From Saccostrea echinata (taxonomy: Eukaryota): a DNA stretch of 64,000 bases. The position numbers and the translations under genes are program-made. The stretch spans positions 51,460,001-51,524,000 of the forward strand of contig NW_026889758.1 in assembly GCF_033153115.1 (NCBI RefSeq), given 5' to 3'. The notes below the pieces were generated by a model, which made no database searches, had not been told where the DNA came from, and was given only the letters and a program-made list of their open reading frames with translations. Of the stretch, positions 1,492-60,037 are shown one piece after another (the first letter of the stretch is position 1; each line of letters begins with the position of its first letter).

Positions 1492-2567
1492 AGAGGCCCA
1501 AGGACCTTAACGGTCACCTGAGTACAATACAACAATTTAGAGGATCCATAAACTGATAAATGAAGCTTTGTTGCCCAAAAGCAAGAAAAATAGTATGATT
1601 AGCATCAACAAAATAATTGGTCTAGTATCTATCTGTCCCCCATTTATCACTATTACCATGCAGACTATTCCCAAAATGTCTTTTTTTTAACCCCATATTA
1701 TTACTTCTCACATTGGCCTCTCTTGGCCTTTGAAGAACATTTAAAAGATAAGTTATTTTTGTCTCATTTTTATTCATCTATTATTTCCAAGTCATTAAAT
1801 CTATGAAAGTACTTTGTATTATACAATAAATATTCTTGCATAATTCTCTTATTCTATTGACCTTTCAAATAATTATTTTCATTGATTAATTATCAAAGGT
1901 GAATGACAAAAGGGAATAACTTTGCTCAGCAGAATACAAGTTAATAGAGCCCTGGCCAGGACCAGAACACTTGACTAAATGGTCCAAGTGTTCAAAATTC
2001 TGGTAAAAATACCCTTGTTTATTAAAACTTTGACTCTGTTTGCCTCGAACATTCCCAGAAGCAGAGAAGATTTACAAAGAAATGCATTTTCACTATATTA
2101 TTAAATAAATGAAGCCACATCTTTAAACCAGAACATCTAACTCATTAGCCATGAACTCACAATTCTGGAAGAAGCACCCTTTCTCAGCATAACTTTTACT
2201 TTATAACCAGTAGTAGAAAAAATATTTTGAAAGAAATTATGCATTTTCACTATATAATCAATAGAGCCCCCCCCCCCCCCGAACCCCTTGAATTTCACAA
2301 TTTTGGAAAAGGCATTCTTCCTTATCCTAACCATGCACTTCCTTTGTTTGAAAAATACCCAGGAGCAGAGAAGAAGAGAAGAAGATTTTGAAAGAATTTA
2401 TGCATTTTCCCTATATAATCAATAGAGCCTCACCCTAACACCAGAACCCCTGACCAAGGAGCCACGAAATTCATAATTTCTGTGGAGGCATGCGCAGCCA
2501 TGCTCATCAAAACTATGTTCTTAGTTTATTTAATATCCAGGAGATTTTCAAAGAATTAATGCATTTT

Positions 2568-2645
<78 letters not shown>

Positions 2646-3310
2646 ATAGAGCCCCACCCCAACACCAGAACCCCTGACCAAGGGGCCATGAAATTCAAAA
2701 ATTTGGTAAGGGCAACCATGCTCATTATAACTATGCACTAAGTTAGTTTATTCAATACCCAGGAGCAGAGAAGAAGATTTTCAAAGAATTAATGCATTTC
2801 TACTATATATAATCAATAGAGCCCCGCCCTAACTCCTGACCCCCTGATCCAGGGGCCATGAAATTCACAAATTTGGAAGAGGCAACCATGCTCATCATAA
2901 CCATGTACTTACTTAGTTTATTTAATACCCAGCAGCAGGAAGATTTTCAATGAATTAAAGTATTTTCACTATATAATCAATAGAGCCCCACCCTAACACT
3001 AGAACCCCTGACCGTGGGGCCATGAAATTCACAAATTTGGAAGAGGCAACCATACTCAATATAACTATGCATTTAGTTAGTTTATTTAATACCCAGGAGT
3101 AGAGAAGAAGATTTTCAAAGAATTAATGCATTTTCACTATATAATCAATAGAGGCCCGCCTAACACCAGAACTCCTGACCCAGGGGCCATGAAATTCACA
3201 AATTTGGAAGAGGCAACCATACTCAATATAACTATGCATTTAGTTAGTTTATTTAATACCCAGGAGCAGAGAAGCTTTTCAATGAATTAATGCATTTTCA
3301 CTATATAATC
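1492..3310 (+). mobile_element. Non-autonomous Helentron-like (HINE/pearl-type) element with ~165-bp tandem array, 3' truncated
   Basis: Begins AAGAGGCCCAAGGACCTTAACGGTCACCTGAG. Repeated units GAGAAGAAGATTTTCAAAGAATTAATGCATTT...CCCCTGACC..GGGGCCATGAAATTCAC run across ~2050-3310. Confidence 0.65.
2571..2642. repeat. (TA)n microsatellite
   Basis: Visible TA run inside a satellite unit. Confidence 0.95.
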
Positions 3311-8038: not shown

Positions 8039-10049
8039 ACCGTTCACGGTAGCTCAGTCGGTAGAGCGCTCGCTCCGTGATCGGGAGGTTGTGAGCTCGA
8101 ACCTCGGCCGCGACTAACCTAACTCGATAAAAAATGGGTAGCAACCGTTCCTTCGCCATGCGCTCGGCACTTTGAAGTGAAAGCGAGTCCTTCGGATGAG
8201 ACTTTAAAAACCGAGGCCCCGTGTCACGGCAGGCGTTGGCATGATAAAGATCCTTCACTGCTCAATGGCCCTGAGTGCTGAGTAAAGGTAAACCAGAAGT
8301 CTCTGATGAGACTGTAGCTCTACTGGTCTGTTTGTATAACAAAAGAAAAGTAGCACTTGGATTTGAAACATTGCAACATGCAACAATAAATAGAATTATG
8401 TATCTTAATGTAGTCTACTTTTGTGACAAGTTATATTGAAATCAAATGAAAACTAGGAGTAGTAGCGTTTTGAAAGTATTTCACTAAAATTTCTATTTTT
8501 AGTAACCATGACAACACCATTCACCCAAATAAAAAAAAACAGAAATACATATTATGTATCGTAGTGTATTCTAACTGTGTGCCAAATTAGATTGAAATCA
8601 GACCAAAATTGTAGGAGGAGTAACGTTTTAAAGGAATTTCAAAGAAATTTCTATTTTAAGTAACCATGGCAACACTGTTCATTGAATTCAAAAACCAATG
8701 CAATAAATTATGTATCTTAGTATAGTCTTCTTGTATGCCTAATTATATTAGAAGCAGACTAAAACTGTAGCAGGAGTAGTGTTTTAAAGGAATTTCACAG
8801 AAATTTTTATTTTTAGTAACCATGGCAACACCGTCAATTGAATAAAAAAACCGATGCAATAAATTATGTTTCTTAGTGTAGTCTACTTGTGTGCCAAGTT
8901 ATATTGAAATCGGACCAAAACTGTAGGAGGAGTAGCGTTTTAAAGGAATTTCACAGAAATTTCTATTTTTAGTAACCATGGCAACACCGTCCATCGAAAT
9001 CAAAAACCGATGCACTAAATTATGTTTCTTAGTGTAGTCTACTTGTGTGCCGAGTTATATTGAAATCGGACCAAAACTGTAGGAGGAGTAGCGTTTTAAA
9101 GGAATTTCACAGAAATTTCTATTTTTAGTAACCATGGCAACACCGTCCATCGAAATCAAAAACCGATGCACTAAATTATGTATCTTAGTGTAGTCTTCTT
9201 GTGTGCCAAGTTATATTGAAATCGGACCAAAACTGTAGGAGGAGTAGCGTTTTAAAGGAATTTCACAGAAATTTCTATTTTTAGTAACCATGGCAACACC
9301 GTCCATCGAAATCAAAAACCGATGCACTAAATTATGTAACTTAGTGTAGTCTACTTGTGTGCCGAGTTATATTGAAATCGGACCAAAACTGTAGGAGGAG
9401 TAGCGTTTTAAAGGAATTTCACAGAAATTTCTATTTTTAGTAACCATGGCAACACCGTCCATCGAAATCAAAAACCGATGCACTAAATTATGTATCTTAG
9501 TGTAGTCTACTTGTGTGCCAAGTTATATTGAAATCGGACCAAAACTGTAGGAGGAGTAGCGTTTTAAAGGAATTTCACAGAAATTTCTATTTTTAGTAAC
9601 CATGGCAACACCGTCCATCGAAATCAAAAACCGATGCACTAAATTATGTATCTTAGTGTAGTCTACTTGTGTGCCGAGTTATATTGAAATCGGACCAAAA
9701 CTGTAGGAGGAGTAGCGTTTTAAAGGAATATCACAGAAATTTCTATTTTCAGTAACCATGGCAACACCGTCCATCGAAATCAAAAACCGATGCACTAAAT
9801 TATGTATCTTAGTGTAGTCTACTGGTGTGCCAAGTTATATTGAAATCGGACCAAAACTGTAGGAGGAGTAGCATTTTAAAGGAATTTCACAGAAATTTCT
9901 ATTTTTAGTAACTATGGCAACACCGTCCATCGAAATCAAAAACCGATGCACTAAATTATGTATCTTAGTGTAGTCTACTTGTGTGCCAAGTTATATTGAA
10001 ATCGGACCAAAACTGTAGGAGGAGTAGCGTTTTGAAAAATTGTTTACAG

Positions 10050-10087
<38 letters not shown>

Positions 10088-10237
10088 GGACGGACGACGG
10101 ACACCTTACTATCGCATAAGCTCTTCTGGTCTCTGACCAGTAGAGCTAAAAATTTGAAGCCCTTCACCGGTTTATGGTGACGTCTCTATATGAGTGAAAA
10201 ATTCTCGAATGGGACTTAAAACAACATACAATCAATC
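8039..10237 (+). mobile_element. SINE family B (Meta/Deu-like), split by the HINE at 8290-10150
   Basis: The 5' part (8039-8289) and 3' part (10150-10237) rejoin to match the intact copy at 21495. Flanks are TTACTTCTCAAAA / TTATTTCTCAAAA (TSD with 1 mismatch). Confidence 0.85.
8290..10150 (+). mobile_element. Complete HINE/pearl-like element with ~10 copies of a 156-bp repeat and a (GACA)n tract
   Basis: Subterminal AGCTCTACTGG near the 5' end; 156-bp period (e.g. 8941 and 9097); (GACA)n at ~10048-10100; 3' hairpin AGCTCTTCTGGTC-TCT-GACCAGTAGAGCT; inserted in an A run with no TSD. Confidence 0.85.
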
Positions 10238-11415: not shown

Positions 11416-11714
11416 TTGTTTGTTTGTATGTTGTTTAACGTCCCTCTCGAGAATTTTTCACTCATATGGAGACGCCACCAATTGCCGGTGGAGAGCTGCA
11501 AATTTTTTCCTATACTCGGCACTTACGGCCATTGAGCAGTGAGGGATCTTTTTCGTGCCAGCACCTACTGCGAAACGGGACCTCGGTTTATACGGTCTCA
11601 TCCGAAGGACCGGTCTCCACGTCCCACAGTAGGATTCGAACCCGCGACGTAAGGATCAACTCCTTACTCCGCAACTCTAGAGCGAACGCTCTAACCACTG
11701 CACCACGCGGGCGA
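11416..11714 (-). mobile_element. Full-length SINE family A
   Basis: tRNA-like head with A/B boxes, a CCTTCGGATGAGAC core and a (CAAA)n tail; TSD CAGACATCTTTTA. Confidence 0.9.
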
Positions 11715-12419
11715 CAGACATCTTTTAAGTGAGGAAAATGTCCAATACTTACTGCACTGTATGTGGAAAAGAAGCGAGACCAAATGAAGGTTATTCTTGG
11801 CAAAGCCTGTGCGCGTGGTTTTGAAACATACATGTAATTTAATTCTTCGTGAGAAAGCCATGAACTTGTATTTCTCATCTTGTGGGCAAAAAATCGGTTA
11901 TATTCGGATTAGTTCTCATACAGCAAGAGACAGTAAAAAAGCAATATCTTCCGCAATCCATGCAGAACAATTAGCAAATTTCGGGATCTATTGTTGCGAA
12001 GTGAAGACATAAGGCTAGATTTGGAGGAAACTGATTCTCTCAATCTAGATTATTAATACCTAACACTGCAGTTTGATAAACCGTGTCAATTTACACTTTG
12101 CGCAATGAAACTTGCTCCATGGGAACACGTGTAGGAATAAACAGAACTACGCACTGGTCTTTCAAATAACATTTCAAAACATAATTTAGCATCTATAATT
12201 TTTTGTGTTTCTAAAATTGTTAAGAGTTGAAGAAAAGTGTTGATGACAAAATTTGTTCCATAATACAAGGACTTGACCATATCATACGAGGTGAAGTGAT
12301 TCAGTCTCACTACCGTATTTGCTCGGTAACTTCTGAAATCAGTAGATTCACTTACCACCATCATTTTTCTCAATGAATATAAATATATTGATCGATATTG
12401 AAAAAAAGTATTGCATGGG

Positions 12420-26878: not shown

Positions 26879-29800
26879 TTAATTGTGGGTTAAATTTAAC
26901 TTCTGAAATCTTTTCAAAGCAGTCGCCATCCATGACAATCTGTCACCAAAGTATGCTTTCATTTTATTGTGGTGTACAATCTTGATGTTTGATCGTTCAT
27001 CTGTCTGTACTTGGTATAATAAATCATTGATCTTTTGTAGCACCAAACAAGGACCAAAGTATCTCGGCTGCAGTTTGTAACTCTCCAGGCCAGTATTTGG
27101 GCTTTCTAATAAGATAGAAACTAGGTCACCAACTTTATATTGATTCAGGTTAGATCGTCTGTCATATCTATCCTTCTGCACTCTTAAAGAGTTTTTTAAG
27201 TTTTTCCTAACAATCTGGTTTGATTGATACATACTCTCTCTGAGTTTATATAAATAATCTGCACATGTAGAAAAATTTTCTGTCTCTCTAGAAGAACTAT
27301 ATATGATCTCGAGAGGAAGCTTGACTTCTCTTCCCAACATGACCATGTTTGGAGTAAATTTTGTCGATTCTTGAGGTGTACTTCTGTATGCAAGTGCAAG
27401 ACATCCTAAATTCAAATCCCAATCTGTTTGCTTGCCCTTGATATAAGATTTAATCATACTAATCAGTGTTCTGTTGAAACGTTCAACCAAACCATTGGCT
27501 TGAGGGTTCCTAGGAGTTGTTCTAGTCTTTTTAATTTCTAGCATACTGCATAATTCTTGAAATAGATTGCTTTCAAAGTTACGGCCTTGATCACTGTGGA
27601 TAGATTCTGGGCATCCGAATCGAGCAATGACTTCATTTAGAATTTTATCTGCACAAGTCTGGGCTGTCTGGTCATGAACTGGAAGTATTTCCACCCATTT
27701 GCTGAAGTAATCTGTTACGACTAATATATATTTGTTTCCTCGTGGGGTTCTGGGTAAGGGACCAAGTATATCTATGCATAATCTGTCCATGGGTGCACCA
27801 ACACTCATGTCCCCTAAAGGTCCTTTTGATGATTTAGTAGAAACTTTGTTCATCTGACATTCATGACATTTCTGTATCCATGCATTGATATCTGTTTGCA
27901 TGTCATACCAATGAAAGAATCTTCTTATCTTTGCAGTGGTCTTCTTTTGGCCCAGATGTCCAGAGATCACAGAATTGTGCATCTGATGTAGAACCTGGTC
28001 TCGTAAGGTATGAGGTAGTAGTAACTGTAAGTATTGTAAATCTCCATTGTTAGAGACAAATTTCTTGTACAGAATACCATCTTTCAACTCGATGGAGTCC
28101 CAAATATTACAGTAGTATCTGCAGGGAGGACTGGCATTTTTAGTAGAATTATCATCTGGTTTTTGACCTTTTTCTTTAGAGTTATATATCAAATTCAAGT
28201 CTGGGTCATCTTTCTGTAATTTTGCCATATTTACTGAAAGACATATATCTTGCCAAGATGTAACTTCTGTCTTTGTTTGATTACGAGTAATTACTCGAAT
28301 AGTATTTGTAGTTTTGTTTCTTGTATCTGGCCATCTCTAACGCTCTGGGGTTTCTTCATTTCTTTTTATACACTTTTTACAGGGACCACATCTCAGTGTC
28401 GATTCGGCCTCTTCCACACACTGGCAGTTATGTGGGTCAGGACATCTTGAAAGTGCATCAGCATTGCCATGTTTATGGCCAGGTCGGTATTCAATTGAAA
28501 AATTGTATGAAGAAAGTATTACCCTTGGGTTCTTTAATTTTAAACAACCATACCAAAGCTTGGTGATCAGTTCGGATTTTGAATCTTCTTCCCAAGAGAT
28601 ACTGTCTAAAGTATTCTACAAAATATCGTACTGCAAGCAGTTCTTTATCTGTGACACAATAATTGGTTTCAGCTTTGTTTAAACTCTACTGGCATAGGCT
28701 ATAACTTTTTCTTGTCCGTCTTGTATCTGACTCAATACAGCCCCAATACTGAAGTTACTTGCATTTGCATCAAGTATGAACTCTCCGTCCATTGTAGGGA
28801 AACTCATAATTTCTGGTCCAGTTAGGAGATTTTTAATACATTGGAAGGCCTCTTGACATTCGTCAGTCCACAGAAAGGTACTCCCTTTTTTTGTTAAGTT
28901 AACCAGGGGTCTAACAATACTTGCAAAATCTTTAATAAATTTTCTATAATAGGATGCCATGCCAATTACTTGTCGAACTTCAGTTGGCGTCTTAGGAACT
29001 GGCCAATTCAGGATTTTCTCAATATTATCCGGGTTGGGTTTCACTCCATCTTTATTGATCACATGACCCAGAAAGGAAACTTCCTTTCGAAACAACTGGC
29101 ATTTATTAGGTTTTAATTTTAAACCTGCTTCTTTAATCCTACTTAAAACTTCTGTGACTCTTGTCAGATGTTCTTCAAAATTTGAACCAAATACAATGAT
29201 GTCATCTAGGTATATCAGACACGTTTGCCATTGCAAACCAATTAAAATTATCTGCAGGGTTCGTTGAAAAGTTTGTGCACTCCCCTTCATTCCCATAGGC
29301 ATAGTTAGAAATTCCCACAATCCATATTTTGTTATAAAAGCAGTTATTGGTATATCTGATTCTTTGACAGGAACTTGGTGGTAACCTGAAGTTAAGTCAA
29401 ATGTTGAAAATATTGTTGCTCCAGAGACAGCATCTAGACAGTCTTGAATTCTAGGCAGAGGAAAGGCATCATTTTCTGTCACCTCGTTCACCTTTCTATA
29501 GTCTTTACATGGCCGAATTTTTCCATTTTTCTTCTAAACAAGGTTCAGAGGTGAAGCCCAGGGAGAATTTGATTTTCGAATGATTCCCTCTTTTTCCATA
29601 TCTGTAATTGTTTTAAGTTCAGCTTCAGCATAAGCAATAGGAACTCTTCTGGGTGGAAGTTCAATTGGTCTAGCATTGCCAGTATCAATCGCATGCTCAT
29701 TAATATGAGTCAAACCCAAGTCTAAGTCGTTCTTAGAAAAAGTGTCTTGAAAGTCAAATAGCAATTTGAACAGATCTCTCTGTGACTTTTCATCAAGTTC

Positions 29801-30700
29801 ATTAGACTTCAAGGAGTCTTCGTATAATTGTCTTAAATGTTCAGGTAATTTTTCATTTAATTGTCCTTTTTCTGTTTCAGTGGTATGCCTGACAGTGTGT
29901 CCTATTGTAATATTATCTGCGCTTCCGCCAGGATCTTCCAGCACAGTTTCATATAGAAACTCTTCAGCATTTCCAAGTACGACATATTGCCATATCTGTT
30001 TTTGTGTACAAGTTGGATTCAAAAGTCTGACAGGTACTGTAGTACTTTTCTCTATGTCAATCAAAGAACATGCCATTAACAATTCATACTTTTCTGAAAA
30101 TTTCTCATTTGGTTCCACTATAAACTCTGTAGGCTCTGTACCATCGTCATTCCTCTCGACAAAAGCTTGAATAATCTTCTCACTGTAAGGGGGAACAACA
30201 TAATTATCAGCAGCTGTAACTCTTCGGCATTTGTTGTCTGATTTAACTTGAATGCATGGTATAGTAGTTCCATGTAATCGTACAATTCCTCGACTAAGTA
30301 GAATATCCGCGGGTACTCCCATATTTATCTTGTAAAACATCCACCCCCAAAAGACAATCATCATTTATATTTGCAATGATAATATTCTGTTGTACGAACA
30401 AATCATCCAGGTTCAGAGTAAATTCTGCTTCACCAAGTAAGGTCAAGCTTGTACCACATGCATTCACAATGCCTGGTGTATCCTTAAGCTCAGGTTTCTT
30501 CTTTATTCGTTTAAATACTCTTTCTGACAAGATGGTTCTGGAAGCACCAGTATCAATAGTAAAAGTAACGGGGACATCATTGATTTTTCCTTTGATATAA
30601 ATTCCAGGGCATTTTTCAAAATTTCTTTTGACATCATCAGTAACAAGGCTAATATCTTTTATTTTATTTTCAGATAGGTCTTCGTTCAAAGTCTCCTGGA
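26879..30700 (-). pseudogene. pol: Gypsy pol (protease, RT, RNase H, integrase), frameshifted
   Basis: Protease IDTGAS; RT FDLTSGYHQ and YLDDIIV; RNase H ILDANAS...IGAVLSQ; integrase H-H-C-C, IDILGP, SDQGRNF, VERFNRTL and a GPY/F-like motif. Frames break at ~30330, ~29530, ~28680 and ~28490. Confidence 0.95.
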
Positions 30701-30718
30701 TCGTCTCTCGACCTGCAG

Positions 30719-32512
30719 TTACGATCCCCTGAAGTTTAAATTTCCGGGATATTGTGGTGCTGTACTTCTGAAGTTTTGCTGGGTGACAACTGGACAGTCA
30801 CGAGCAAAATGACCCTGATTGTTACACTGATAACAAGCAGTGTTGGAGGATGTTTTAAATCTGGGAAGAAAGGCTGAGGATTTATTCATCTCGGACAACA
30901 TCTTTTCAAGATTCTGGATTTGTCTTTGCATTCTTAGTATATCATCTTTGAGATCCACATTAGTAGTTCCTGATGTTTTAGATTTATGCATTGTTGTAAA
31001 CGAAGCATCATTTTGTGAAACTGTCTTGGATTCCTTTTCTTTATTTTCAAATCTCTTATTACTTCCTGTTTTTGTATCATTTTCAGTCACTGCCCGAATT
31101 GGACGTTTATCGGCCTTTGAAGAGCTCCTTTTATGAAGATCGCTGAAATTGATCACTTGGAATACAGCATCATCAATGTTGTCTGGCTCTTTTATGTATT
31201 CGACCTGGAACTGGACTTTCTCATCATTGAGACCATCAAAGAATTTTCGAAGTAGATCCTCTCTGCGTATAGTCTCGTCCCTGTTAGGGTATGCCTTGGC
31301 ATATAGTTTCTTTAAGTCTGCTGCATAGACTTCTACAGGTTCATTTGGTTTCTGTCTACGGTTACTGAACTTAGCTTCTAACGACTTCTTAGTTTCTATA
31401 ACTTGGTATCGATTATCTAATTCTCTGATTAGTTTCTTGTAATTAGATTTTGTTCTTTTTGTAAGTTGTTCAAAGACAAATTCTCCTGCTCCACCTTGCA
31501 TTCTAGGTAATAGCTCATCAAGTCTTTCATTGTTTGTCCAATTTCCCCTGTCTGCAATTTCTTCAAATCTGCCCTTCCATACAACCCATTTTTCTTTATC
31601 TTGACCAGTAAAGGGAGGTAACTTATGAGAAAATTTTCAGGGATGTCTCTTTTGAGTTACAATAGATGTAGGTATTCTCTCATCATTAGAATCTGATGTA
31701 CTGCTACTGGTGGAGTCATCTGAGGAGGATGAATTTTCATCGATCAATCTTGCCCGTTTAAGCTGTCTCTCTGACTGGGTTTTTCTAGAAGCACGTCTAT
31801 GTCTGGACAATGTTTTAGACTGAGCTGTATCTGTACGACTCCTTCCAGGGCTTTGGTGCTGTACTGATACACCTGATTGGACTGTATTCAAAAATTTCTG
31901 CATGTCTTTTAAAATTGTGGCCAAATCATCTCTGTTGTCAGACAACTGATACATAGGGGGCTGGTATACTGGATTGTTCATTTGTTTACTTCTGACATCT
32001 TCGTGATTTTGTCTCATTGCATTTGAATGATCTGATCTAGTAACTGGAGGACAGGAATATGGACGCCCATTCTTGGGAGGGATCGATTCATGCAAATCAT
32101 CTATAGACGAATCATCTGTCAAATCATGGATTGGTAGCGGAAATTGATTAGGGTTATCTCCCCTATCGAGGATGAACATTTGTTCATTGCACCTTTCTGG
32201 TGTTGTATGTTTTTGTTCATTTGTAATAAATGATTGTGACACATTTTCTGTGTTTAAAGGATTCATATGTAATGAATTGTGCATCAAATTTGATGTTGAA
32301 GTTGTGCATGACATATGCATAGTGTCCTGTACAGTAAATTTACTGTTTATAACACTTTTATTTCCAAAAGGATTTTCAATTCCAGTTTTTAAACTGTTGT
32401 CAGAATTTATTTTGTCTACACACTGCCTATCATTTTTCTGTCTCACACTCACATCATCTGACATCTCATCAGCTTCTACAACAACCAGACCCTTTCTTTT
32501 ATTCTTTCCCAT
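30719..32512 (-). pseudogene. gag: Gypsy gag with one in-frame TGA at 31637-31639
   Basis: The two ORFs share a frame (HP*KFSHKLPPFTG...); zinc knuckle CYQCNNQGHFARDC. Confidence 0.9.
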
Positions 32513-32637
32513 ATTATCTATCTGAACACTGCCTAATCAAAAATAAAAATAAACTCACACATCAACTTTTATTTTTACAAACAACTAGCAAAAATATAAA
32601 AAGGTTCGTATCTCTGGATACCTATAAAATTGAAGGT

Positions 32638-32655
32638 ATCCCGCCGTGGATGCCA
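32638..32655 (-). promoter_or_regulatory. Primer-binding site
   Basis: TGGCATCCACGGCGGGAT a few nt after the 5' LTR. It starts with TGG, the complement of tRNA CCA; the tRNA identity is not assigned. Confidence 0.75.
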
Positions 32656-32659
32656 AAAA

Positions 32660-34661
32660 TGTAACGCTAGCGGTTCTGCTAGAAATTGTTTTCATAGAAT
32701 TAATAATTCTCTCAACTCCTTTTATAAATGTACCATTCGCAAAGAAGACATAAGATTATTAACATTAAACAATTAAATTTATTAAGTGCATTATCAACAA
32801 ACAATTTATTTAAACGACGACATTCACACCACATTCATACCCAACTAATAATAATAAATAAGTTTAATAAAAATAAATAATTAAATCATACCATAAAACA
32901 GACTGAAAAACCACCCCAAAAATCTAACGTGTCTATTCCTATGCGTATAAAATATGTGACAACAAGTCTTAGTTATTTATAACTTTGACTTGTAAAACTT
33001 AACACCAAGCTTTACTGTATTTAACAGGTTAGCTTGTTAAACTCCTAAAATACTTTATTAAATAGGGACACAAGCCGTGGTTATTTATAACTTTGACTTG
33101 TTAAACCTAACAACAAGCATTACTGTATTTAACAGGTTAGCTTGTAAACACTAAGGGCAAAGAAAGATAACTCTAATAATCATAAGTAAGTTTATCGAGA
33201 AGCAACGTTTAAAAATTCCCAAGTACTCTAATAAAATAATTTCTATTAAAAATAATTGAAGAGAAATTTACGTATCTAGAATAATTAAATTACTGTATGA
33301 AAATAAAATAAATAATTGACTTTCGTTGAACTAATCAACTTTACTCATCATAAAAGAGAAAGATAGCAAACGTATAACTTTAGTTACATAGTTTGCATTA
33401 AAATGAAAATGAAATAAAATAGAGTAAAAATGAAAAATAAAATAATCCTGGATAAATTAATTACTAAAGAAGACTACTCAGTCATAGACTGTTGAGTCTT
33501 TAAAACAACCGATAGCGGACAATAGTATCTTACTATTTTGTGTCCTACACGGTAAAACCCTATCCTAAATAAATAAATTAAAAATAAATTCCTAAATAAA
33601 AATAAATAAATAAAATAAAATAAAATAAAAGATAGACAAAATAAAAGTTAAAATAAAATCCTAAAAAAATCTGAGAGTTCCGTAAAACGGACCTACCAAA
33701 TCAAAATAAGCAGAAGAGTGACTAAAAAATCTCAGCGTCTAACTTTTATATGACTCTATGACAGAAAATAACGGAAAATGCTGGAAAATAACGGATATTA
33801 ATAGAATTATTAATTATGAAATTTCATTGGATTATCAATTAATGATCAATTATATCGAACAATCTGATTGGTCAATTGTAAAACATCACGATCTTTCACG
33901 TGAACAAGTGTCACCAAATATTCTATACAAGTATGAAATAATGAATTTTTACATATTTATCAATTAAATAAAAATCTATTTCACAATAAATAATTAAAAC
34001 AAAACAAATTAAACTTAAAACAATATTCAGTTTATCTAAAAATACAGTCATTCATAAGATACCGCCATTCAAACTCGATATATTTATCGGTTATATTACA
34101 AATGCAAGGATAAATTTATCAATTACTTTAACAAGTTTCTAAACCGGAAGTACATCGTAATGAAGAGCGAAACTGTCAAACAATGTGACAACAGAAGTTT
34201 AGACTATTTCACAGGTATTATACCAACTAAATAACACTAACCAAACAACAATTACTTACTATTTGACACAGTTATAGTCTTCGAATTATCTCAGTCATGT
34301 TTATGTTATCAAAATATATCAATCTACCCTTGTTTCACAAGTATATACATTTACAATTAAGTGACTTAGGTACAACTCTGCGAATAGCACATTCTATAAA
34401 ACAAAATAAAACTGTGAATAAACAAACTGCATCAACCCGCTCCAAATCACCACAATGCATGATAACATATTACAGTCATTGACCCTATTTGATAGAAAAA
34501 TCAACCCGCTCCAAGCTCACACATATATAGTAAAATATTACAGTCATTGACTCAGAATGATTAAACACTGTTGTGGATAAAATAAAAAGTTACACCATGT
34601 AACCTAACATTACTATTATTGCATCATTTAAAAAAAGGGGGGGGGGGTCACATGCACTACA
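32660..34661 (-). repeat. 5' LTR (2002 bp)
   Basis: Direct repeat of 22257-24322 with a 71-bp deletion, a 9-bp insertion and scattered substitutions. Confidence 0.97.
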
Positions 34662-34980: not shown

Positions 34981-35107
34981 ACGTTTGTTTGTTATATTAT
35001 ATTCCTCTGGAGAATTTTTCACTCATATGGAGACGCCACCTTTTGCCGGTGGAGAGCTGCAAATTTATACCTATACTCGGCACTCAGGGTAATTGAGCAG
35101 TGAGGAA

Positions 35108-35327
35108 AGTAGTAAGGGGTATAGTCTGGGGTCTATATGGGGTCACTGACGTCATGGGTCCGTCTGGGGTCACCCATCCCATGAAAGCCGTCTGAGGTCG
35201 ATGACGTCACGACCCATCCCATAAAACCGTCTGGGGTCACCCATCTGATAAAACCGTTTGGGGTCACCCATCCCACAAAGCCGTTTGGGGTCACCCTTCC
35301 CATCAAACAGCCGTCTGGGGTCACCCC
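35108..35327 (+). repeat. Left TIR with internal ~27-bp subrepeats
   Basis: AGTAGTAAGGGGTATAGTCTGGGGTC...; repeated CCGTCTGGGGTCACCCATCCC. Confidence 0.95.
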
Positions 35328-35739
35328 TCCGTTTTTCCCACGATCAAATTCTTGGTTTTTCCACTAGGGGATTGTCTCAGACACACCCTATAAATTCCTC
35401 ATGTTTATTATATAAACTCCAAGTTTCATTTAGATTTTTATTCTGCAAAGAGGAAACACTTTAATTTATACAAAGACAGTACTTGTATTAGTAAGTATAC
35501 TTTGCTTAATTCTTGTTACCCAACATGCAGTTTCTTTTCTTTCTTGTTACCCAAATAATTTCCCCTTTTCAAGAATTACACTTTCATTTTTTTTTTAAAT
35601 ATTTTATTAGCATGATTTTTAATATTTTATTAATTCTTATAAATATAAGAACAAAGGAATATTAATGAGAACCTTCAATAGACCTACATTTAACAAACAA
35701 AGGCTTCATAATAGTTAACTCAAATAAAACCTAACTTTT

Positions 35740-36040
35740 TAAACATTTGAAATTATTTTAAACATTTCAAATAATCCTGCATATAATTAACAATCATTGA
35801 AGTTTGTATTGAGTCCACTCTAACTGAATCACTTACTTTCTTAAACATTTGAAATTATTTTAAACATTACAAATAATCCTGCATATAATTAACAATCATT
35901 GAAGTTTGTAATAATTAAGTTCAGTCTAACTGAAACAACTACTTTTTTAAACATTTGCAATTATTTTAAACATTTCAAATAATCCTGCATATAATTAACA
36001 ATCATTGAAGTTTGTAACAAGTCCACTCTCACTGAATCAA
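35740..36040. repeat. Three tandem ~103-bp repeats overlapping a gene 3' end
   Basis: AAACATTT..AATTATTTTAAACATT.CAAATAATCCTGCATATAATTAACAATCATTGAAGTTTGTA occurs three times. Confidence 0.9.
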
Positions 36041-36459
36041 TGAGTTCAGAAAGGGCGCTTAACTCCTCCTTAAGAGGATACTGCCTCGACGTTTGCGAAG
36101 ATGCGGGGGTCCCTGTCCCTGATGGGACTGCTGGTAGCACTGGTGTATTTCTAGCTGTCGGTGTTAGGGTATGGTCAGGAGTCGGAAGGTTAAGTATCGA
36201 GTTAAATTCTGTTGGTGTAGATGACAGGTTAAGGGACGATGCGGGGCTGGATGGAACACATATAGACGAAGACGGGCTATATCCCAACGCAAACTCTGAT
36301 TTGATTGGTGGTGTAGGACATGGGTTATATCCATACGCAAAGTCGGGTGCCTGGGGGTCGAGCTCAGCTTTAATTGGTGGTGGTGAGGGACAAGGTGGGC
36401 TATAGCCTATCGCAAACGTTCTTCTCTCTAGCGCTTCATATTTAGCAGGATTATCCTTC
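35961..36459 (-). CDS. Terminal exon of a Polinton Pro/Ser-rich protein of unknown function
   Basis: Open frame from the acceptor TTATTACAG: KDNPAKYEALERRTFAIGYSPPCPSPPPIKAE...FAYGYNPCPTPPIKSEFALGYSP...DYLKCLK*. The upstream exon was not located. Confidence 0.55.
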
Positions 36460-37334
36460 CTGTAATAATGAACATATTTAAAATGAAAAAATTTGTGAAT
36501 AGATGTAAAATTAGAAATATCTGGTCACATTAATCATTTTTGTCTGTTATATTTAAAAAACACTTCGTACAGAAAAATAAATATGTGTTGAAATATTGTA
36601 TTATAATGACCACACAATATTCGTGCATCTATCGTTATGCGCAATAAAGATACCCTTATGTTGACCACATTTCATACTAATGAATATTATTGATAATTTA
36701 AGTCGTATATTCAACCTGAACGGGGTACACATCATAACCGTATTTGGAAAGGTCTAAAAGTCGCATGTACAGATCGATAAAATTTGACCTAAACGCAAAA
36801 AGTGTGTCAAAGTTTATTCAGATCACAAGAGTCGTATCTAATACGTTGTAATATTTTAAAAAAAAAAAACAGCCCGTATTAAAAAAAGTAACTACATGTT
36901 CAAAAATGTCATATCACACAATGTGGGTTTTTGTGAACAAAAGTCATGAATTATAAAACTGTCGATCGTGCGTTGAAGTCTGTATATATCCAATTCATTT
37001 AATCTATATTTTATTAATATAAATCTAAATTTGCGCCTTTCACGTTATTTTAACCCAAACCATCCTTCAATATCTGTCATCGTGTGTGTGTGTATAAGGG
37101 TTTCCACGAGAGAGAGAGAGAGAGAGAGAGAGTATTACGATGACTCTCAGAGTGCATCATGCACTTACAAATGTATTTCATTTCAACAGAATTAATAATC
37201 TTAGTTTATATAGCATATATATGAATTAATTTTGAAAAAAGGGTAGATCAGAAGATCACGTGACCAAAATTTTCGCGCGGATATGTTATCACGCGCTCAT
37301 GCTGAAAAAAAAGATGGAGGAGAGGTCTGTGAGG

Positions 37335-39565
37335 ATGATGTGTGTTATAGGCCTATCTATTGCTTTATGCCCCGTAATTTTGGGTGCCGTATTAAGGAGT
37401 CCCACCAGAATCGTTAAGACATGTTACTTGCCTTGTATTAATATCACGGTGCAAGCGTCAGAAGTTCGAGACGTTTTTGTGACGTCATGTAGACTGAACT
37501 CTGTATTCGTAATTGGAAATATGTCTTCGGTACATATTCACCCACTGGACCAAAGTCACAAAGAATGTGGTAAGTCTTATATATTTCAATTTCAATTAAG
37601 TTATCGTACACAGATCCCATTATCCCCCCCCCTTTCATTGTTGGACAAGTGAAGTAGTACTGAACTTCAGTTCAGTACTGAAGTAATTAAATTTGCATCA
37701 AATCTGGGTTTTTTTCATATTGGTATTGAGGTGATCACTAGTGAATTAATTTTTTATCGACCATTAAAAAGTACACATAACTGCAAAAAAAAAAAGACGC
37801 TTTATCTCCGAAGGTTTACGGAAAGTGCTGCGCGTTTAAATAAAGATCGGGTTCGACATAATATGAATTCGAAAATCAGAGGCATTCCGAATGTTTCATG
37901 AATTCTATTTTTTTAAATTTCAGAGCCAAAACAAATCACAGAAACGGGGAAGAACGGTGAGCATTTGAATATACTAATTAAGAAAGATTGTGTGTGTGTA
38001 AACATATATAAAGTCTTATAAATATTGCTGTAAAAGGATCTATAGGTAAGGGTGACATTATCAGACCTCGGGTGGCATTAAGTCCATACAGTCTTGAACA
38101 TGTTGAAAATTTGAAGTAGAAAGGTTTTATGATACCCTTTTTCCCCTCAGAACCAGTTGAGAAAACGACCAGGCAAGTGGTTTCAAGAACGACAAGAACA
38201 ACGATAGCTATCACTGAGACCCGAACACCTCATCCCACTAAAGAAGAAGGTAATGGAGGTAAGATGTATACCATAAGTATATAACACATGATGTTTGTGT
38301 ATAGTCAATGCGTGGCAAGTATACTTTCGTGAACATGGTCAAGGTATAAAAGAACAAAATAATGTTCATAATGTCTTTTTGTTTTATTTTTCAGAGCCAG
38401 TGGAGAAAACAACACAGCCTAGGATTACAAGAAGGACAAGAACAATGATAGCTAGCCCCATGATCCGAACACCTCATCCCACTAAAGAAGAAGGTAATGG
38501 AGGTAAGATGTATACCATAAGTATATAACACATGATGTTTGTGTATAGTCAATGCGTGGCAAGTATACTTTCGTGAACATGGTCGAGGTATAAAAAAAAA
38601 AGGAAAGAAAATGTTCATAATGACTTTTTGTTTTATTTTTCAGAGCCAGTGGAGAAAACAACACAGCCTAGGATTACAAGAACGACAAGAACAATGATAG
38701 CGAGCACTGAGACCCAAACACAAGAGAGAAATTACAAAGATCTTGCTGAGGGTATATCTGGTTCATCCATCTATATTATTGTCATTTGTTCACTTAATTT
38801 GTTATTTCTCTTTTTATTTAAAACAAAGAAAATAAAAAATATGTATTTAGATAAATGTAAGAAAAAAAGAAAACATGTGAAAAGAAAAAAAAAGTTGAGT
38901 ACATGGTTGTTTAGAAAAAATCAGATAGTTAAGGAAAACAAATTACCATCAAAATATGAGCTTCAGGAAATTATAAGATCTTGTACAAAGTCAGATGATG
39001 AATTTGAAGATGATGACTTTTATGATGAAGTAAACTTTGATTCAAGATTGTACGTTAATAAAAAATAGATTTTGTAAAGTGATTTTTTTTTTTAAAAACA
39101 CATGTAAAGTATATAATGTTTCATAAATTATGTGAAGAAATCTTGTTTTTGAGAGCTACATTTTTTTTTGTAGATTATCTGATATGGGCTATCATTATTA
39201 CGATTTGCTGTAAAGTGTCTTTGGTCATCATAATTCGACTTTCAATTAAAATTCGACGTACAAGAATGCATGACATACCGATGCGATTGACAGAGATTGA
39301 CTCCCCTGCTCCTACCACACCACCACCAGCTGCTCCTTCCGCACCACCACCTTCTGCACCAGAGAACCCTCCAGAGAACCAACCCTCTGCACCAAACCAA
39401 ACCCCTCAATTAGGTCATACAGACACACCTAGGGGTGCAGAAGGAATTGAAATGTCATATTTTACACCCCAAACTGCCAAACCCTTGATTCAATCCAAAA
39501 CATCATCCCCCATTGCACTCCGAACCAGGTCGCACACACGTAAAAAGTTGAATTTTCATGTGTAA
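37335..39565 (+). CDS. Six-exon type I membrane protein with mucin-like stalk (exons 37335-37569, 37924-37956, 38151-38249/58, 38395-38493/502, 38644-38751, 39174-39565); alternative read-through end at 39068
   Basis: Signal-peptide-like MMCVIGLSIALCPVILG; all five introns are GT-AG with pyrimidine tracts and all are phase 1; Thr/Pro-rich repeated exons; TM YLIWAIIITICCKVSLVIII; Pro-rich tail. Confidence 0.8.
38151..38720 (+). repeat. Tandem ~245-bp exon+intron duplication (about 2.3 units)
   Basis: EPVEKTT... exons start at 38151, 38395 and 38644 with near-identical introns. Confidence 0.92.
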
Positions 39566-51498: not shown

Positions 51499-52482
51499 TT
51501 ATTCAGAATCACTTTCGATTGTCTGTGAGTCTTGTAAGTCACCGACATTACATTCCATGGACACATCTTCTGTCGGATTATATCCAAAAGGAGTACACTC
51601 TGGACAACTTAACATTCCAAGCTGATTTTGATGGGACTCGCTGAACACACACAGTTCTGTATCATTTAATTCGGGAACATATTCTCGTACTTCTTCAACG
51701 GCTTGTAGTAATTTAGTCAACTTGTATTTGTTCAAAGACACACCTTTTCTGGTTGGTACCGGTTCTAGGGCATCGTCTGGCTTCCAAAAGTGCCTAATGT
51801 CTACTGAGGTATACCCAGGGTTAACAGAGACGAAGACACCCCCTCCAATATGCCATTTCATCTCTACATCAGCTTCATTGTTTTGCAGATAGTTGGCGAT
51901 ATCTGGTAGAAGAGACTCAAATTTCAGCCATCGGCACAACGGGAATGTCACCCCCTTCTTTGTTGCAAAATAACGACCGTTAGATTCTGTAAAGTGACGG
52001 ATGTGAATATTGATATCCCCCTTGAATGGCACGGCTGTAAGGAAAAGATCGTTGAAGTCATCCAGACTGATTCTACACCGCTCTTCTTGTGAGTTTTGTT
52101 GTTCTGAAGGGTTACTTTTCGGCTCAGACTTAATAATTCGTTTTTCTGACATGTTCACAACCAGCGACCTGGCCATTGCTAACTTCTTTTCGTACTCGGA
52201 CATGTTATTATCACCGACTGAGAGAAGCTTGGATAAGTCTGTTTGGTTAGCTTTCATAAGTGCCATTCGAAGACCTGTAAAACCTTTTGGTCCTCTGCGT
52301 AGAATGATACTTATTAGCTTTCTGTTACGATCATAACTGGTCTTTTCGGCTTCAATCTGCTGTCTCATCTCGTCGGTTATAATGTTGGAGGCAAAGAGAT
52401 GCCCAGCAACGGAAGAGGTCATCATTTTTTTCACCAGAGTCGTGTAGTTTGCTTTGATTATATCCTGATGTTTCTGTTCCAT
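51499..52482 (-). CDS. CARD + tandem PC4-like ssDNA-binding domains + C-terminal Cys motif
   Basis: Residues 1-88 fit a death-fold CARD pattern (LF...IIT.EM.Q.IEAE.T..DRNRKL+.II.RRGP..F..L..AL). Two PC4 signatures: FKG.INIHIRHF...ATKKGVTF...W and VDIRHFW...PTRKGVSL. C-terminal C...HQNQ.G...CPEC. Confidence 0.85.
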   Translation of the reverse strand: MEQKHQDIIKANYTTLVKKMMTSSVAGHLFASNIITDEMRQQIEAEKTSYDRNRKLISIILRRGPKGFTGLRMALMKANQTDLSKLLSVGDNNMSEYEKKLAMARSLVVNMSEKRIIKSEPKSNPSEQQNSQEERCRISLDDFNDLFLTAVPFKGDINIHIRHFTESNGRYFATKKGVTFPLCRWLKFESLLPDIANYLQNNEADVEMKWHIGGGVFVSVNPGYTSVDIRHFWKPDDALEPVPTRKGVSLNKYKLTKLLQAVEEVREYVPELNDTELCVFSESHQNQLGMLSCPECTPFGYNPTEDVSMECNVGDLQDSQTIESDSE

Positions 52483-52623
52483 CTTTGCTGAAGAGAGGGT
52501 GATGCTTCTTTTACGATCAATTCAGATATGTTGGAAATTTTTACAATAAACCCGTTTTTATAACAAAATTGTCACGTGCTTGATTGACCTTAGACTTTTC
52601 ATAAAAAGGAGTGTTTTTTCTTT

Positions 52624-53187
52624 TTAAAAAAAGTGACTGCAGACAATTTTGACTGCAGACGGAATTGATCTCAGACGTAATTGACTGTAGACATTTTTCT
52701 TGGAGATAATAGTAAATCCTGACTGTATACTGAATTGACGGTAGACATTTTGATAGTATTTAGTTTTTCTTTCACTTTTTTTTTTTTTAATGTAGTGAAG
52801 AGTTTCTGATATTATATTCATAATATCTTCCACAGTATCCGCCATTTCTCTCAACACATAAAGCGGATTTCCATGACGTACTTTTTCTTTTCTATGAATA
52901 AGCCAGTGAAGACTGTAATCCATTTTTTCTGACAGTTCCCTAAACTGGTCCACTAGATCTTTAAGTTTTCTCCAGTCTGAAGCGCCCACTTTAATATCAT
53001 CTCTTTTCATAATTTTGACTTGTGTTTTAAGAGCAAGTGCGCTTCTAACGCATTTCATCAGACGTGTAATGTGCATCAGCAGCTCTTCTTCTTTTCGATT
53101 GGTTAAAACGTTAAAAATGTTTTTACACATTCTGTTCCATTGCAATTTTGTTCTTCTTAATTGTCTTTCCATTGTCAGACCTTCCAT
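52624..53187 (-). CDS. Basic helical protein of unknown function
   Basis: Intact ORF; likely ATG at 53187 with a TATA-like TATATAAA ~45 nt upstream. Confidence 0.65.
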   Translation of the reverse strand: MEGLTMERQLRRTKLQWNRMCKNIFNVLTNRKEEELLMHITRLMKCVRSALALKTQVKIMKRDDIKVGASDWRKLKDLVDQFRELSEKMDYSLHWLIHRKEKVRHGNPLYVLREMADTVEDIMNIISETLHYIKKKKSERKTKYYQNVYRQFSIQSGFTIISKKNVYSQLRLRSIPSAVKIVCSHFF

Positions 53188-53267
53188 TTTCAGCAAAAGG
53201 TATGATGTCTTACGCAAAAAACACCTCAGTTTATATACACGACAGTCCTCGTCACTCCCTTTTTTTT

Positions 53268-53474
53268 TTAATTACACTTGACCTCAGACATTTTGATGTT
53301 ATTTAGTTTTTGAAGTAGGATAGGTGACAACAATATCTCGACATGATCAATTCTTCTTTTAAAATGAGCCCTGTCAACAGCATATTGCATCCATATTCCT
53401 TTCCGTTCTTCATAAGGAATTGCAATTATATGTACACGATCATTAAATTGAATATTCCTTTGCACTGGTTTCAT
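53268..53474 (-). CDS. PPP1R15/GADD34-ICP34.5-DP71L family PP1 regulatory subunit (68 aa)
   Basis: RVxF-type RNIQF, then V.II, then RKGIWMQYAVDRAHFKRRI...E..LSPIL, matching the RxGxW...A.DR.RF.RRI...E..L.P.L family signature. Confidence 0.9.
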   Translation of the reverse strand: MKPVQRNIQFNDRVHIIAIPYEERKGIWMQYAVDRAHFKRRIDHVEILLSPILLQKLNNIKMSEVKCN

Positions 53475-53579
53475 TTTGTTTCACTAAAGGAGTGTCTGTT
53501 CACAGAAAGAGATCGATCTAAAATACTAATGTTCACTCTTCCTTCAATTTATTTATACAAACTAATCATGAATATGAGT

Positions 53580-54065
53580 CTATGCACTAATTTGTTGTTC
53601 ACTGGGCGTCCAATCACCCCAATACTCTTCGTGTCGCCAAGTTCCATCAGGCCACAAGAAAGTCATTGTACCGTTGCAGTAACTTTCAATTTGAGATTCG
53701 TAATGAGCGTCTTTCATGATGCTGTACGGTACACGGTCGGCCATGATAGTTTTCAGGACTTCTGAGAACTCCATTGGTTCCTCCAAAGACACATCTTCAA
53801 GATCACATGCGCGCAAGCAAAAGGTTGCCATCTTCAATGGATCGAGTTTTGATTCCTTGGCCAGTTTCACCAAACAATGTTTCTCGTGTACAAATTTCGT
53901 TCTCAAAGAATATTGCTTTTTACAAAAGTCACAGGACCGGCAATCTCCATTATCTGCAATATACTTATCAATCCGTTTTTTGACAATGGCTCCCCACTTC
54001 AAAAAGTTTCTAAAGTATATCTCATCATTGCATAGAATATCCTCACTGCTCCAATAATCATCCAT
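53580..54065 (-). CDS. Cys/His-containing protein of unknown function (161 aa)
   Basis: Intact ORF with C-x2-C-x2-C...H-x2-H-C; TATATAA ~45 nt upstream, next to the right TIR. Confidence 0.7.
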   Translation of the reverse strand: MDDYWSSEDILCNDEIYFRNFLKWGAIVKKRIDKYIADNGDCRSCDFCKKQYSLRTKFVHEKHCLVKLAKESKLDPLKMATFCLRACDLEDVSLEEPMEFSEVLKTIMADRVPYSIMKDAHYESQIESYCNGTMTFLWPDGTWRHEEYWGDWTPSEQQISA

Positions 54066-54156
54066 TTTGCTGTTTTATAAAGAATTATTATATATTTTTG
54101 TCTCTTCTCCTTATATAGATCGTCAGACGGCTTTGGGAGTGGTTGGTGATTATTTA

Positions 54157-54374
54157 TGTGACCCTAGACAGTTTTTGAGGGGATGGGTGACCCAAAACGG
54201 TTTGATGGGATGGGGGTGACCCCAAACGCTTTAATGGAATGTGTGACCTCAGACGGTTTTATGGGATGGGCCATGACGTCATTGACCCCAGACGGCTTGA
54301 TGGGATGGGTGACCCCAGACGGACCAATGACGTCATTGACCCCAAATAGACCCCAGACTATACCCCTTACTACT
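54157..54374 (-). repeat. Right TIR
   Basis: Imperfect reverse complement of 35108-35327. Confidence 0.95.
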
Positions 54375-54547
54375 GAGGAATCTTTTTCGTGCCAGCATCC
54401 ACAGCGACACGGGACCTCGGTTTAAACGGTCTCATCCGAAGGACCAGTCTCCACGTCCCACAGTGGGATTCGAACCAGCGACGTAAGATCAACTCTTACT
54501 CTGCGACTCTAGAGCAGACGCTCTACCACTGCGCCACGCGGGCGACT

Positions 54548-59006: not shown

Positions 59007-59054
59007 CATTTTGTCTGTAGTCCGTCTGTAAACTTTTCACATTTTCGACTTCTG

Positions 59055-59095
<41 letters not shown>

Positions 59096-59098
59096 AGT

Positions 59099-59133
<35 letters not shown>

Positions 59134-60037
59134 TAAGGGCCACACCTTCTTCCAAGGGGAGATAATTAAGAATTCGTGAAAAATTAATGGCATCATTAAA
59201 AAAATCTTCTCAAGAACCACTGTGCTTGAAAACATGAAACTTATGTGGAAGCATCCTCAGGTAGTGTAGATTCAAGTTTGTTCAAATCATGACCCCCGGG
59301 GGTTGGGTGGGGCCACAATGGGCGATCAAAGTTTTACATAGGAATATATAGGAAAAATCTTCAAAAATCTTCTTCTCAAGAACAACAAAGCCATAATTGG
59401 TCATATTTATATGGTAGCATCCTCAGGTAGTGTAGATTCATGTTTGTTCAACTCATGACCCCCGGGGTCCTGTGGGGCCACAATGGGCGATCAAAGTTTT
59501 ACATAGGAATATATAGGAAAAATCTTTAAAAATCTTCTTCTCAAGAACAACAAAGCCATAATTGGTCATATTTACATGGAAACATCCTCAGATAGTATAG
59601 ATTCAAATTTGTTCAAATCATGACCCCCAGGGGTAGGATGGGGCCACAATGGGCGATCAAAGTTTGACATAGGAATATATAGGAAAAATCTTTAAAAATC
59701 TTCTTCTCAAGAACAACAAAGCCATAATTGGTCATATTATATGGTAGCATCCTCAGATAGTTTAGATTCATGTTTGTTCAACTCATGACCCTGTGGGTCG
59801 GGTGGGGCCACAATGGGCGATCAAAGTTTTACATAGGAATATATAGGGAAAATCGTTAAAAATCTTCTCAAGAACAGCAAAGCCCTGATTGGTCATATTT
59901 AAATGGAAGCATCCTCAGATAATGTAGATTCAAATTTGTTCTATTCATGATACCCCCCCCCCCCACCACCACTTTTATATTTAAACTTTTCAACCTTTCA
60001 AGACTGAAGTGATTTCTGCTTTTTCGTAGCCATAGTG

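Follow-up and report, generated by a model that had tools for sequence, protein, structure and literature searches.

A spliced membrane-glycoprotein gene with two predicted alternative tails inside an oyster Polinton

The window analysed here, a 64,000-nucleotide stretch of the genome of the oyster Saccostrea echinata, contains a Polinton of 19,267 bp (35108-54374), and 2 kb inside the left terminal inverted repeat (TIR) of this element lies a six-exon gene (37314-39565, forward strand) predicted to encode a surface glycoprotein. The left TIR (35108-35324, forward), which starts with (AGT)2, and the right TIR (54158-54374, reverse), which ends in (ACT)2, are identical in 191 of 219 compared columns; these end motifs agree with the description of Polinton termini in PMC8097293. 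A perfect 6-bp target-site duplication flanks the element (35102-35107, identical to 54375-54380). The insertion splits a dispersed host repeat (34983-35105 and 54374-54547), uninterrupted copies of which, near 11420-11715 and 20040-20334, represent empty sites for the Polinton target. TIRs, target-site duplication and end motifs, together with a protein-primed DNA polymerase B (pPolB) and an integrase above the curated Pfam cut-offs, are hallmarks of Polintons, and the gene lies inside such an element, as the original prediction had proposed. A nested transposable element carrying the gene was rejected, since the repeats listed for 35330-41150 include no nested-insertion hallmark and no further copy of the gene occurs elsewhere in the window.

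All exons are on the forward strand. Exon 1 (37314-37569), delimited by sequence and homologues, encodes a signal peptide and a four-cysteine orphan domain of about 55 amino acids, predicted to be built of beta strands. The splice-site scan places next a stalk exon of 33 nt (exon 2, 37924-37956), which is followed by exon 3 (38151-38258), a Thr-rich stalk repeat for which RefSeq isoforms indicate a second donor 9 nt upstream (38250), by exon 4 (38395-38502), another stalk repeat that self-comparison identifies as a tandem duplicate of exon 3 and its intron, and by exon 5 (38644-38751), the last stalk exon, which ends in the same scan at a weak donor. Exon 6 (39174-39565) supplies a transmembrane (TM) segment and a Pro-rich disordered tail of 106 amino acids that closes with P[VI]AxxTR and a basic motif (tail A). 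The five introns are all GT-AG and of phase 1, and the frame joined from 37335 gives 327 amino acids with no internal stop; the six exons originally predicted stand. We ranked splice sites with a consensus matrix over the forward strand of the element (1159 GT and 997 AG sites): donors 1-4 rank 4, 5, 1 and 1, acceptors 1-4 rank 42, 10, 2 and 4, and the fifth donor (149) and fifth acceptor (153) are weak. The same joins, including that of exon 5 to exon 6, are found in the RefSeq isoforms X2, X9 and X10 of a C. gigas "mucin-2-like" gene, 77% identical to ours in exon 1; the isoforms differ by three residues, as two donors 9 nt apart predict. Isoform sets of this kind are usually based on RNA-seq. 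Conservation of the splice sites in other copies, on which the original prediction had been staked in part, is seen in the C. gigas models. The uniform phase, also pointed out at the time, is genuine, yet it is weaker evidence than it appears, because exons 3-5 are a tandem duplication of an exon-plus-intron unit of about 244 nt (89% identical) and part of the uniformity is built in. Exon 1 likewise stands, but translation more likely starts at 37314 than at the proposed 37335, since the named homologues begin at the matching ATG and the context there is better. A TCACGTG E-box closely precedes the gene, as does an E2F-like site (both within 37256-37278). With 14 strand matches in the window against 3.9 expected, the E-box is an enriched motif, and the E2F-like site at 37271 was discarded as a signal (one found, 2.7 expected).

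With tail A, the protein opens on a hydrophobic N-terminus (Kyte-Doolittle 19-mer mean 2.56), followed by cysteines at 30, 34, 52 and 78 (numbering of the 327-residue form), the N-glycosylation sequons NIT36 and NMS62 within the domain, a stalk of 120 amino acids (residues 79-198; 26% Ser plus Thr, 28 Thr), a TM segment of mean hydropathy 2.76 that contains a Lys, and the Pro-rich tail. Each of these features had been correctly foreseen, and two of them need qualifying: the intramembrane Lys is absent from the Saccostrea and C. virginica homologues, for which reason we rejected it as an adaptor-pairing site, and a domain sequon occurs in 11 of the 20 members examined. Tail A is 90% identical over 50 amino acids to the RefSeq protein P0009, and its terminal P[VI]AxxTR plus basic-hydrophobic stretch recurs 17-18 residues from the end of proteins from S. 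cucullata and C. virginica (8 and 31 occurrences per 200,000 shuffles, for a motif picked after inspection). P0014, P0026 and P0028 also finish on a comparable basic-hydrophobic stretch. The end of tail A (39500-39565) resembles cyclin-docking RxL, PP1-docking or nuclear-localisation motifs, as candidates only. Reading on after exon 3 or exon 4 would yield secreted forms of 133 and 169 amino acids, and the models of the homologous locus LOC117686821 end by read-on, with no TM segment.

A second tail, missed by the original prediction, lies within "intron 5". Past its weak donor, exon 5 reads on as an open frame of 105 codons (tail B, 38752-39068, forward, defined by open frame and homologues) in DNA of 24% GC, a length reached by none of 20,000 dinucleotide shuffles (mean 10, maximum 93); in the other four introns read-on stops after 8-27 codons. 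The frame encodes a TM segment (mean hydropathy 2.36) and a cytoplasmic portion of 82 amino acids, composed of a polybasic stretch and an acidic tail that bears YDEV and, ten residues later, YVN. At its end, AATAAA (39057-39062, forward) with a T-rich tract downstream is a candidate poly(A) signal of the read-on isoform by its sequence, a match of limited weight given that AATAAA is common in the AT-rich DNA of the element. A search with this open reading frame (ORF) gave eight homologues among 18 candidates, from which P0030, a C-to-T-converted copy of P0029 (19 of 22 substitutions), was dropped to leave seven. Four of the seven are full length, one at 83% identity and three at 55-58%, two of the latter being one residue apart; all four keep YDEV, YxN and the position of the stop, and their indels keep the frame. 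In P0031, tail B matches at 24 of 32 and 18 of 24 positions against 3 of 20 in the adjoining stalk, and tail B is far better conserved than the stalk next to it. The last stalk exon of P0029, the relative at 83% identity, is also that of P0007-9, RefSeq models that are spliced to exon 6, so one subfamily has both tails.

A collection of 1.84 billion proteins, searched with exon 1, yielded 21 representatives at E<=0.001, most of them at 37-56% identity, and at least 18 further 50%-identity clusters exist. The domain alignment shows almost no variation at three Cys, one Arg, one Gly and several Val. Twelve of the 21 representatives end the domain in C-G-K/M, as expected where a conserved phase-1 donor has been read through; six continue into a stalk as spliced models and three stop short. 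A profile search of longer proteins scored 8,000 candidates and found six matches, each carrying an oyster species name; the named relatives of the domain belong to C. gigas, Saccostrea echinata, S. cucullata and C. virginica, and no homologue from outside oysters was named in the exon 1 and profile searches. Most representatives are unlabelled by species, and the named oyster members do not fix the range of the family. By these comparisons the ectodomain of about 55 amino acids defines a small orphan family: no Pfam family was found among the 22 aligned members, and we rejected weak matches, each limited to one or two members at E>0.008, to families such as CD225 and Sema. Neither exon 1 nor the TIR end had a match in the bacterial and archaeal genomes scanned, and tblastn against phages found nothing either. 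Two of the collected sequences, P0011 and P0030, look translated from C-to-T (bisulphite-type) converted reads of P0002 and P0029 and inflate counts; dropped for this reason, P0011 was excluded from A2 and A4 and retained in alignment A1, and P0030 was retained in alignment A3.

Five named RefSeq loci share the domain (XP_019925045/52/53 "mucin-2-like", LOC117686821, LOC133198455, LOC134252464 and LOC144624599), and all but LOC117686821, with its missing TM segment, keep the succession of domain, stalk, TM and tail. Their names are automatic, and no gel-forming mucin Pfam family was found in P0007 or the other 21 members that would bear out the label "mucin-2"; in the Saccostrea homologues the stalks reach 62-66% Ser plus Thr. 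Tail B is in none of these models. Full tail A is kept in two of the five loci and three are cut short: one lacks the TM, one is frameshifted within tail A (27 of 28 residues fit the shifted frame, against a maximum of 16 in 200 shuffles) and one is probably frameshifted as well, since 6 of its 10 residues there agree with another frame of the Polinton gene.

Of the two AlphaFold2 models of the ectodomain, with pLDDT 66 and 75, the better shows four short strands about ten residues apart and is compatible with a small beta-solenoid. Aligned with VIA-align against 48,161 chains, the first model gave none at Z>=2 and the second gave two at Z 2.2; Foldseek against PDB and BFVD returned no match at E<=0.001, and the domain profile none among PDB sequences. 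A feature search produced a weak CAP_C/TBCC beta-helix lead (score 0.90), which shuffled proteins reach 4-10 times per 100 and which was not reproduced with a second family member. The Atlas models nearest to a homologous domain are mostly phage proteins (TM-score 0.61-0.71 over about 50 residues of a low-confidence model). For the modelled ectodomain the fold searches show neither a new nor a different fold.

The rest of the element holds the following genes and open frames. The pPolB gene (41148-45833, forward; PF03175, E 1e-12 and 4e-27) is frameshifted near 41450 and 43530. A third apparent break, at 44089-44229 (forward), reads as a spliceosomal intron and not as damage, because it is a GT-AG intron across which the coding frame continues; identified from its sequence, it is 141 nt long and of phase 1, holds an in-frame stop and a polypyrimidine tract, and the frame resumes beyond its far side. 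The intron falls in a stretch resembling the VSR-type insert described for mollusc pPolB2 (10.1101/2023.08.22.554363), a tentative domain assignment that includes a weak Pfam match. Intronless core genes, a typical but not strictly defining trait of Polintons, are reported for intact vertebrate Mavericks (PMC8097293) and described for nematode ones (10.1101/2022.07.12.499685); the GT-AG intron in pPolB sets the oyster element apart from this pattern. On the reverse strand follow a packaging ATPase-like ORF (46594-47286; Pox_A32, E 0.003, under the curated cut-off) with a frameshift near 46815, an adenovirus-type protease-like ORF (47384-47845; Peptidase_C5, E 0.014, under the cut-off), and an ORF of 438 amino acids (47842-49158) that we take, from its place and size, to be a candidate for the double jelly-roll major capsid protein, and that gave no informative match in Pfam, PDB sequences or PHROGs. 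Further along the same strand lie a retroviral-type integrase with a chromodomain (50140-51294; rve E 3e-13, Chromo E 2e-10), a CARD protein with two PC4-like stretches (51499-52482; CARD E 6e-13, PC4 E 3e-13), and an ORF of 68 amino acids (53268-53474) weakly like the PP1-binding region of GADD34-type proteins (PF10488 PP1c_bdg, E 0.024, under the cut-off), which resembles viral GADD34 mimics such as DP71L and ICP34.5 and could counter translational shut-off. Divergent from the glycoprotein gene, a Pro/Ser-rich open frame of 187 codons from stop to stop (35961-36524, reverse; no Pfam match) probably represents, as judged from its sequence, the final exon of another accessory gene; candidate acceptors lie near 36460 and 36788, and its 3' end overlaps three tandem repeats of about 104 nt (35726-36046). 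In the flanking DNA, a Gypsy-type long terminal repeat retrotransposon (22253-34647; direct repeats of about 2.4 kb, 98-100% identical, with gag, reverse transcriptase and integrase ORFs) lies just left of the Polinton, and tandem arrays with periods of 156-170 nt occupy 2286-3310, 8395-10098, 17136-17764 and 59051-59955.

What might such a protein do? The best pointer to its mechanism is tail B, whose motifs are those of adaptor ligands: pYDEV is listed for Nck1 and pYVNV for Grb2 (PMC3514216; PMC10755736). Vaccinia A36, orthoreovirus p14 and yatapox YL126 likewise have a Nck site followed by a Grb2 site, and use the pair to drive N-WASP/Arp2/3-dependent actin assembly for spread or fusion (PMC9333988). 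The common trait of these proteins, a TM protein with a Nck-type and then a Grb2-type phosphotyrosine motif in its cytoplasmic tail, recurs in tail B in motifs and order. The likeness is one of motifs alone: no homology is shown, the oyster protein differs in its cleaved-type signal peptide and its glycosylated ectodomain, and its tyrosines stand 10 residues apart against about 20 in A36, p14, LAT and nephrin (PMC9333988). Among 100,000 shuffled tails, YDE[VP] followed by YxN arises 19 times, for a motif picked after inspection. The p14 protein, which comes from a non-enveloped virus, has a juxtamembrane polybasic stretch, as does tail B. Oysters possess both Nck and Grb2 adaptors. A distance of ten between tyrosines is also that of an immunoreceptor tyrosine-based activation motif (ITAM; YxxL/I-x6-8-YxxL/I); an ITAM was rejected for tail B, where the spacing fits but the residues at +3 are Val and Lys/Arg, here and in the four full-length homologues.

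We regard an element-borne, alternatively processed surface signalling protein as the best reading of these data, and hold the chances for and against it to be about even. The gene would then belong to the accessory set of an oyster Polinton lineage, and the host nucleus would transcribe and splice it as it does pPolB. Its product would be a type I surface glycoprotein in which a signal peptide and a small disulphide-bonded beta domain precede an O-glycosylated stalk, whose number of repeats varies, and either of two TM-tail modules. Competition between the weak fifth donor and an intronic poly(A) site may select tail A or tail B; the membrane/secreted switch of IgM is a precedent for such competition. 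Tail B would be phosphorylated by Src-family kinases and would dock SH2 adaptors, the likeliest being Nck on YDEV and Grb2 on YxN, and clustering of the ectodomain could lead to actin or Ras/immune signalling in the element-carrying cell; the conserved terminal basic motif of tail A would engage a different partner. The protein would be a non-structural host-manipulation factor on the infected cell, not part of the icosahedral particle. The CARD protein and the weak GADD34-like ORF of the same element speak for this reading. By analogy with A36, p14 and YL126, oyster Polintons might even be viruses that spread from cell to cell, with tail B recruiting Nck and Grb2 for actin protrusions or cell fusion, an extension that we consider unlikely. 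The sequence comparisons directly show the chain of exons, the two tails with their conservation, and the gene's place within the element, and the original notion of a cell-surface glycoprotein carried in a Polinton gains support from the layout and from the position within TIRs and target-site duplication. Several observations nevertheless weigh against a signalling protein of the element. Besides the short tyrosine spacing, three of the seven retained tail B homologues stop after the basic stretch, before the tyrosines; the tail B matches are ORFs on short contigs, no full-length model or transcript with tail B was seen, and an ectodomain upstream of the 55-58% relatives would have to be assumed. 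Tail A as a whole has no significant alignment to distant homologues (E 0.22 and 34-37). All named relatives are annotated as host genes in RefSeq, a gene native to Polintons would be deduced from this one element copy, and the ectodomain has no known ligand or fold. Finally, because pPolB and the ATPase are frameshifted, this copy would be defective and non-autonomous, or mis-assembled.

The annotation of all five named loci as host genes is equally what one would expect if the Polinton had captured an oyster immune or adhesion receptor, whose two tails, with their host signalling, it carries as cargo; we consider this possible, though on the doubtful side. Animal surface proteins typically have symmetrical phase-1 exons, and the further 50%-identity clusters also suit a fast-evolving immune family. 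The position beside a TIR matches the intron-bearing, host-derived cargo of nematode Mavericks (wasp proteases, with krma kinases as a second family; Widen et al., 10.1101/2022.07.12.499685), and the oyster gene resembles it in being an intron-containing gene in an accessory region of a few kb at the left TIR; the nematode cargo, however, consists of enzymes in elements with an intronless core, whereas the oyster gene encodes an orphan two-tailed membrane glycoprotein upstream of an intron-bearing pPolB. It is this intron that weakens the capture argument implicit in the original prediction, of a spliced passenger among compact core genes: introns alone do not show host capture, because the core pPolB is itself spliced. 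A captured receptor also sits poorly with the absence of any named relative beyond oysters and of any Pfam family, and three of five named loci are cut short, which suits decaying element copies.

Alternatively, the protein may be an immune decoy or glycan shield in the manner of adenovirus E3 or cytomegalovirus RL11 proteins, whose ectodomain would bind a haemocyte receptor or lectin while the stalk shields the surface, with tyrosines for sorting or ITAM-like signalling instead of actin recruitment and with secreted decoys made by read-on, which appears to us decidedly unlikely. As an analogy of architecture the "E3-like" label first given to the gene is apt: E3 CR1 and RL11 proteins combine a spliced or variable type I layout with signal peptide, small Cys domain, Ser/Thr stalk, TM and motif-bearing tail, and the oyster protein has this type I layout with a Ser/Thr stalk. 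The Ser/Thr-richness of the Saccostrea stalks, the TM-less models of LOC117686821, the secreted forms that this copy would give and an ITAM-like tyrosine spacing all agree with a decoy. As a statement of kinship, the label finds no support in Pfam, where 0 of 22 aligned members hit an E3 or RL11 family at E<=0.1; the E3 and RL11 ectodomains have an Ig-like fold, and the model of the oyster domain (pLDDT 75, best Z 2.2) has four short, regularly spaced strands with no fold match; moreover, the second tyrosine is YxN instead of YxxL/I in all four full-length homologues, and a glycan shield accords poorly with domain sequons in just over half of the members. Least probable, and by our estimate very improbable, is a virion envelope or attachment protein analogous to MFUS-1, which would imply enveloped or vesicle-cloaked particles. 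Nematode Mavericks do encode a protein with signal peptide and TM (10.1101/2022.07.12.499685), and the phage-like Atlas models and the CAP_C/TBCC lead, the latter within the range of shuffled proteins, lean the same way. MFUS-1 and the oyster protein are alike as Polinton-borne proteins with a signal peptide and one TM, but the former has 866 amino acids in all and a gB-like class III fold (10.1101/2022.07.12.499685), and such a large fusogen ectodomain cannot fit into a domain of about 55 amino acids on a Thr-rich stalk; two signalling-type tails and secreted forms would, besides, be unexpected of a structural protein.

Among the top results of the literature searched, no paper dealt with this gene or with a spliced membrane-protein gene in a mollusc Polinton, and the five RefSeq homologue identifiers were nowhere mentioned in that literature. 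Accessory genes of membrane-active and "Oncoid" type are listed in a survey of adintoviruses, whose main text is without the terms "glycoprotein", "transmembrane" and "splic" (PMC8502044); the coral survey is without the words "intron" and "transmembrane" (PMC11131425). Introns of other sorts are on record, group I introns in cryptophyte Polinton-like viruses (PMC12220804) and introners in dinoflagellate elements (PMC11957031). The general kind of gene is not new, because intron-bearing TIR-adjacent genes and a signal-peptide/TM protein are known from nematode Mavericks. Within the literature searched, what appears new is the orphan oyster ectodomain, the presence of two conserved tails as alternatives, together with a pair of phosphotyrosine adaptor motifs, and the putative spliceosomal intron in a core Polinton gene.

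These findings bear on the open question of how animal Polintons leave one cell and enter another; particles of vertebrate Mavericks, for instance, have never been observed according to PMC8097293. If confirmed, the pPolB intron would mean that introns alone cannot mark a Polinton gene as host-derived; surveys built on ORFs would then count too few intact elements in molluscs, and too few of the accessory genes that these carry. The findings also hint that elements are the true home of some oyster genes labelled "mucin-like" in RefSeq. Should the gene prove to be a captured host receptor, it would be a further case of Maverick cargo, outside nematodes. If oyster Polintons do spread from cell to cell through tail B, theirs would be a further independent origin of the strategy of A36, p14 and YL126, with alternative RNA processing to switch between this tail and a second one, and would help explain the scarcity of visible free Maverick virions in animals. 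The conserved phosphotyrosine adaptor tail makes a cell-surface role of a Polinton gene cheaply testable.

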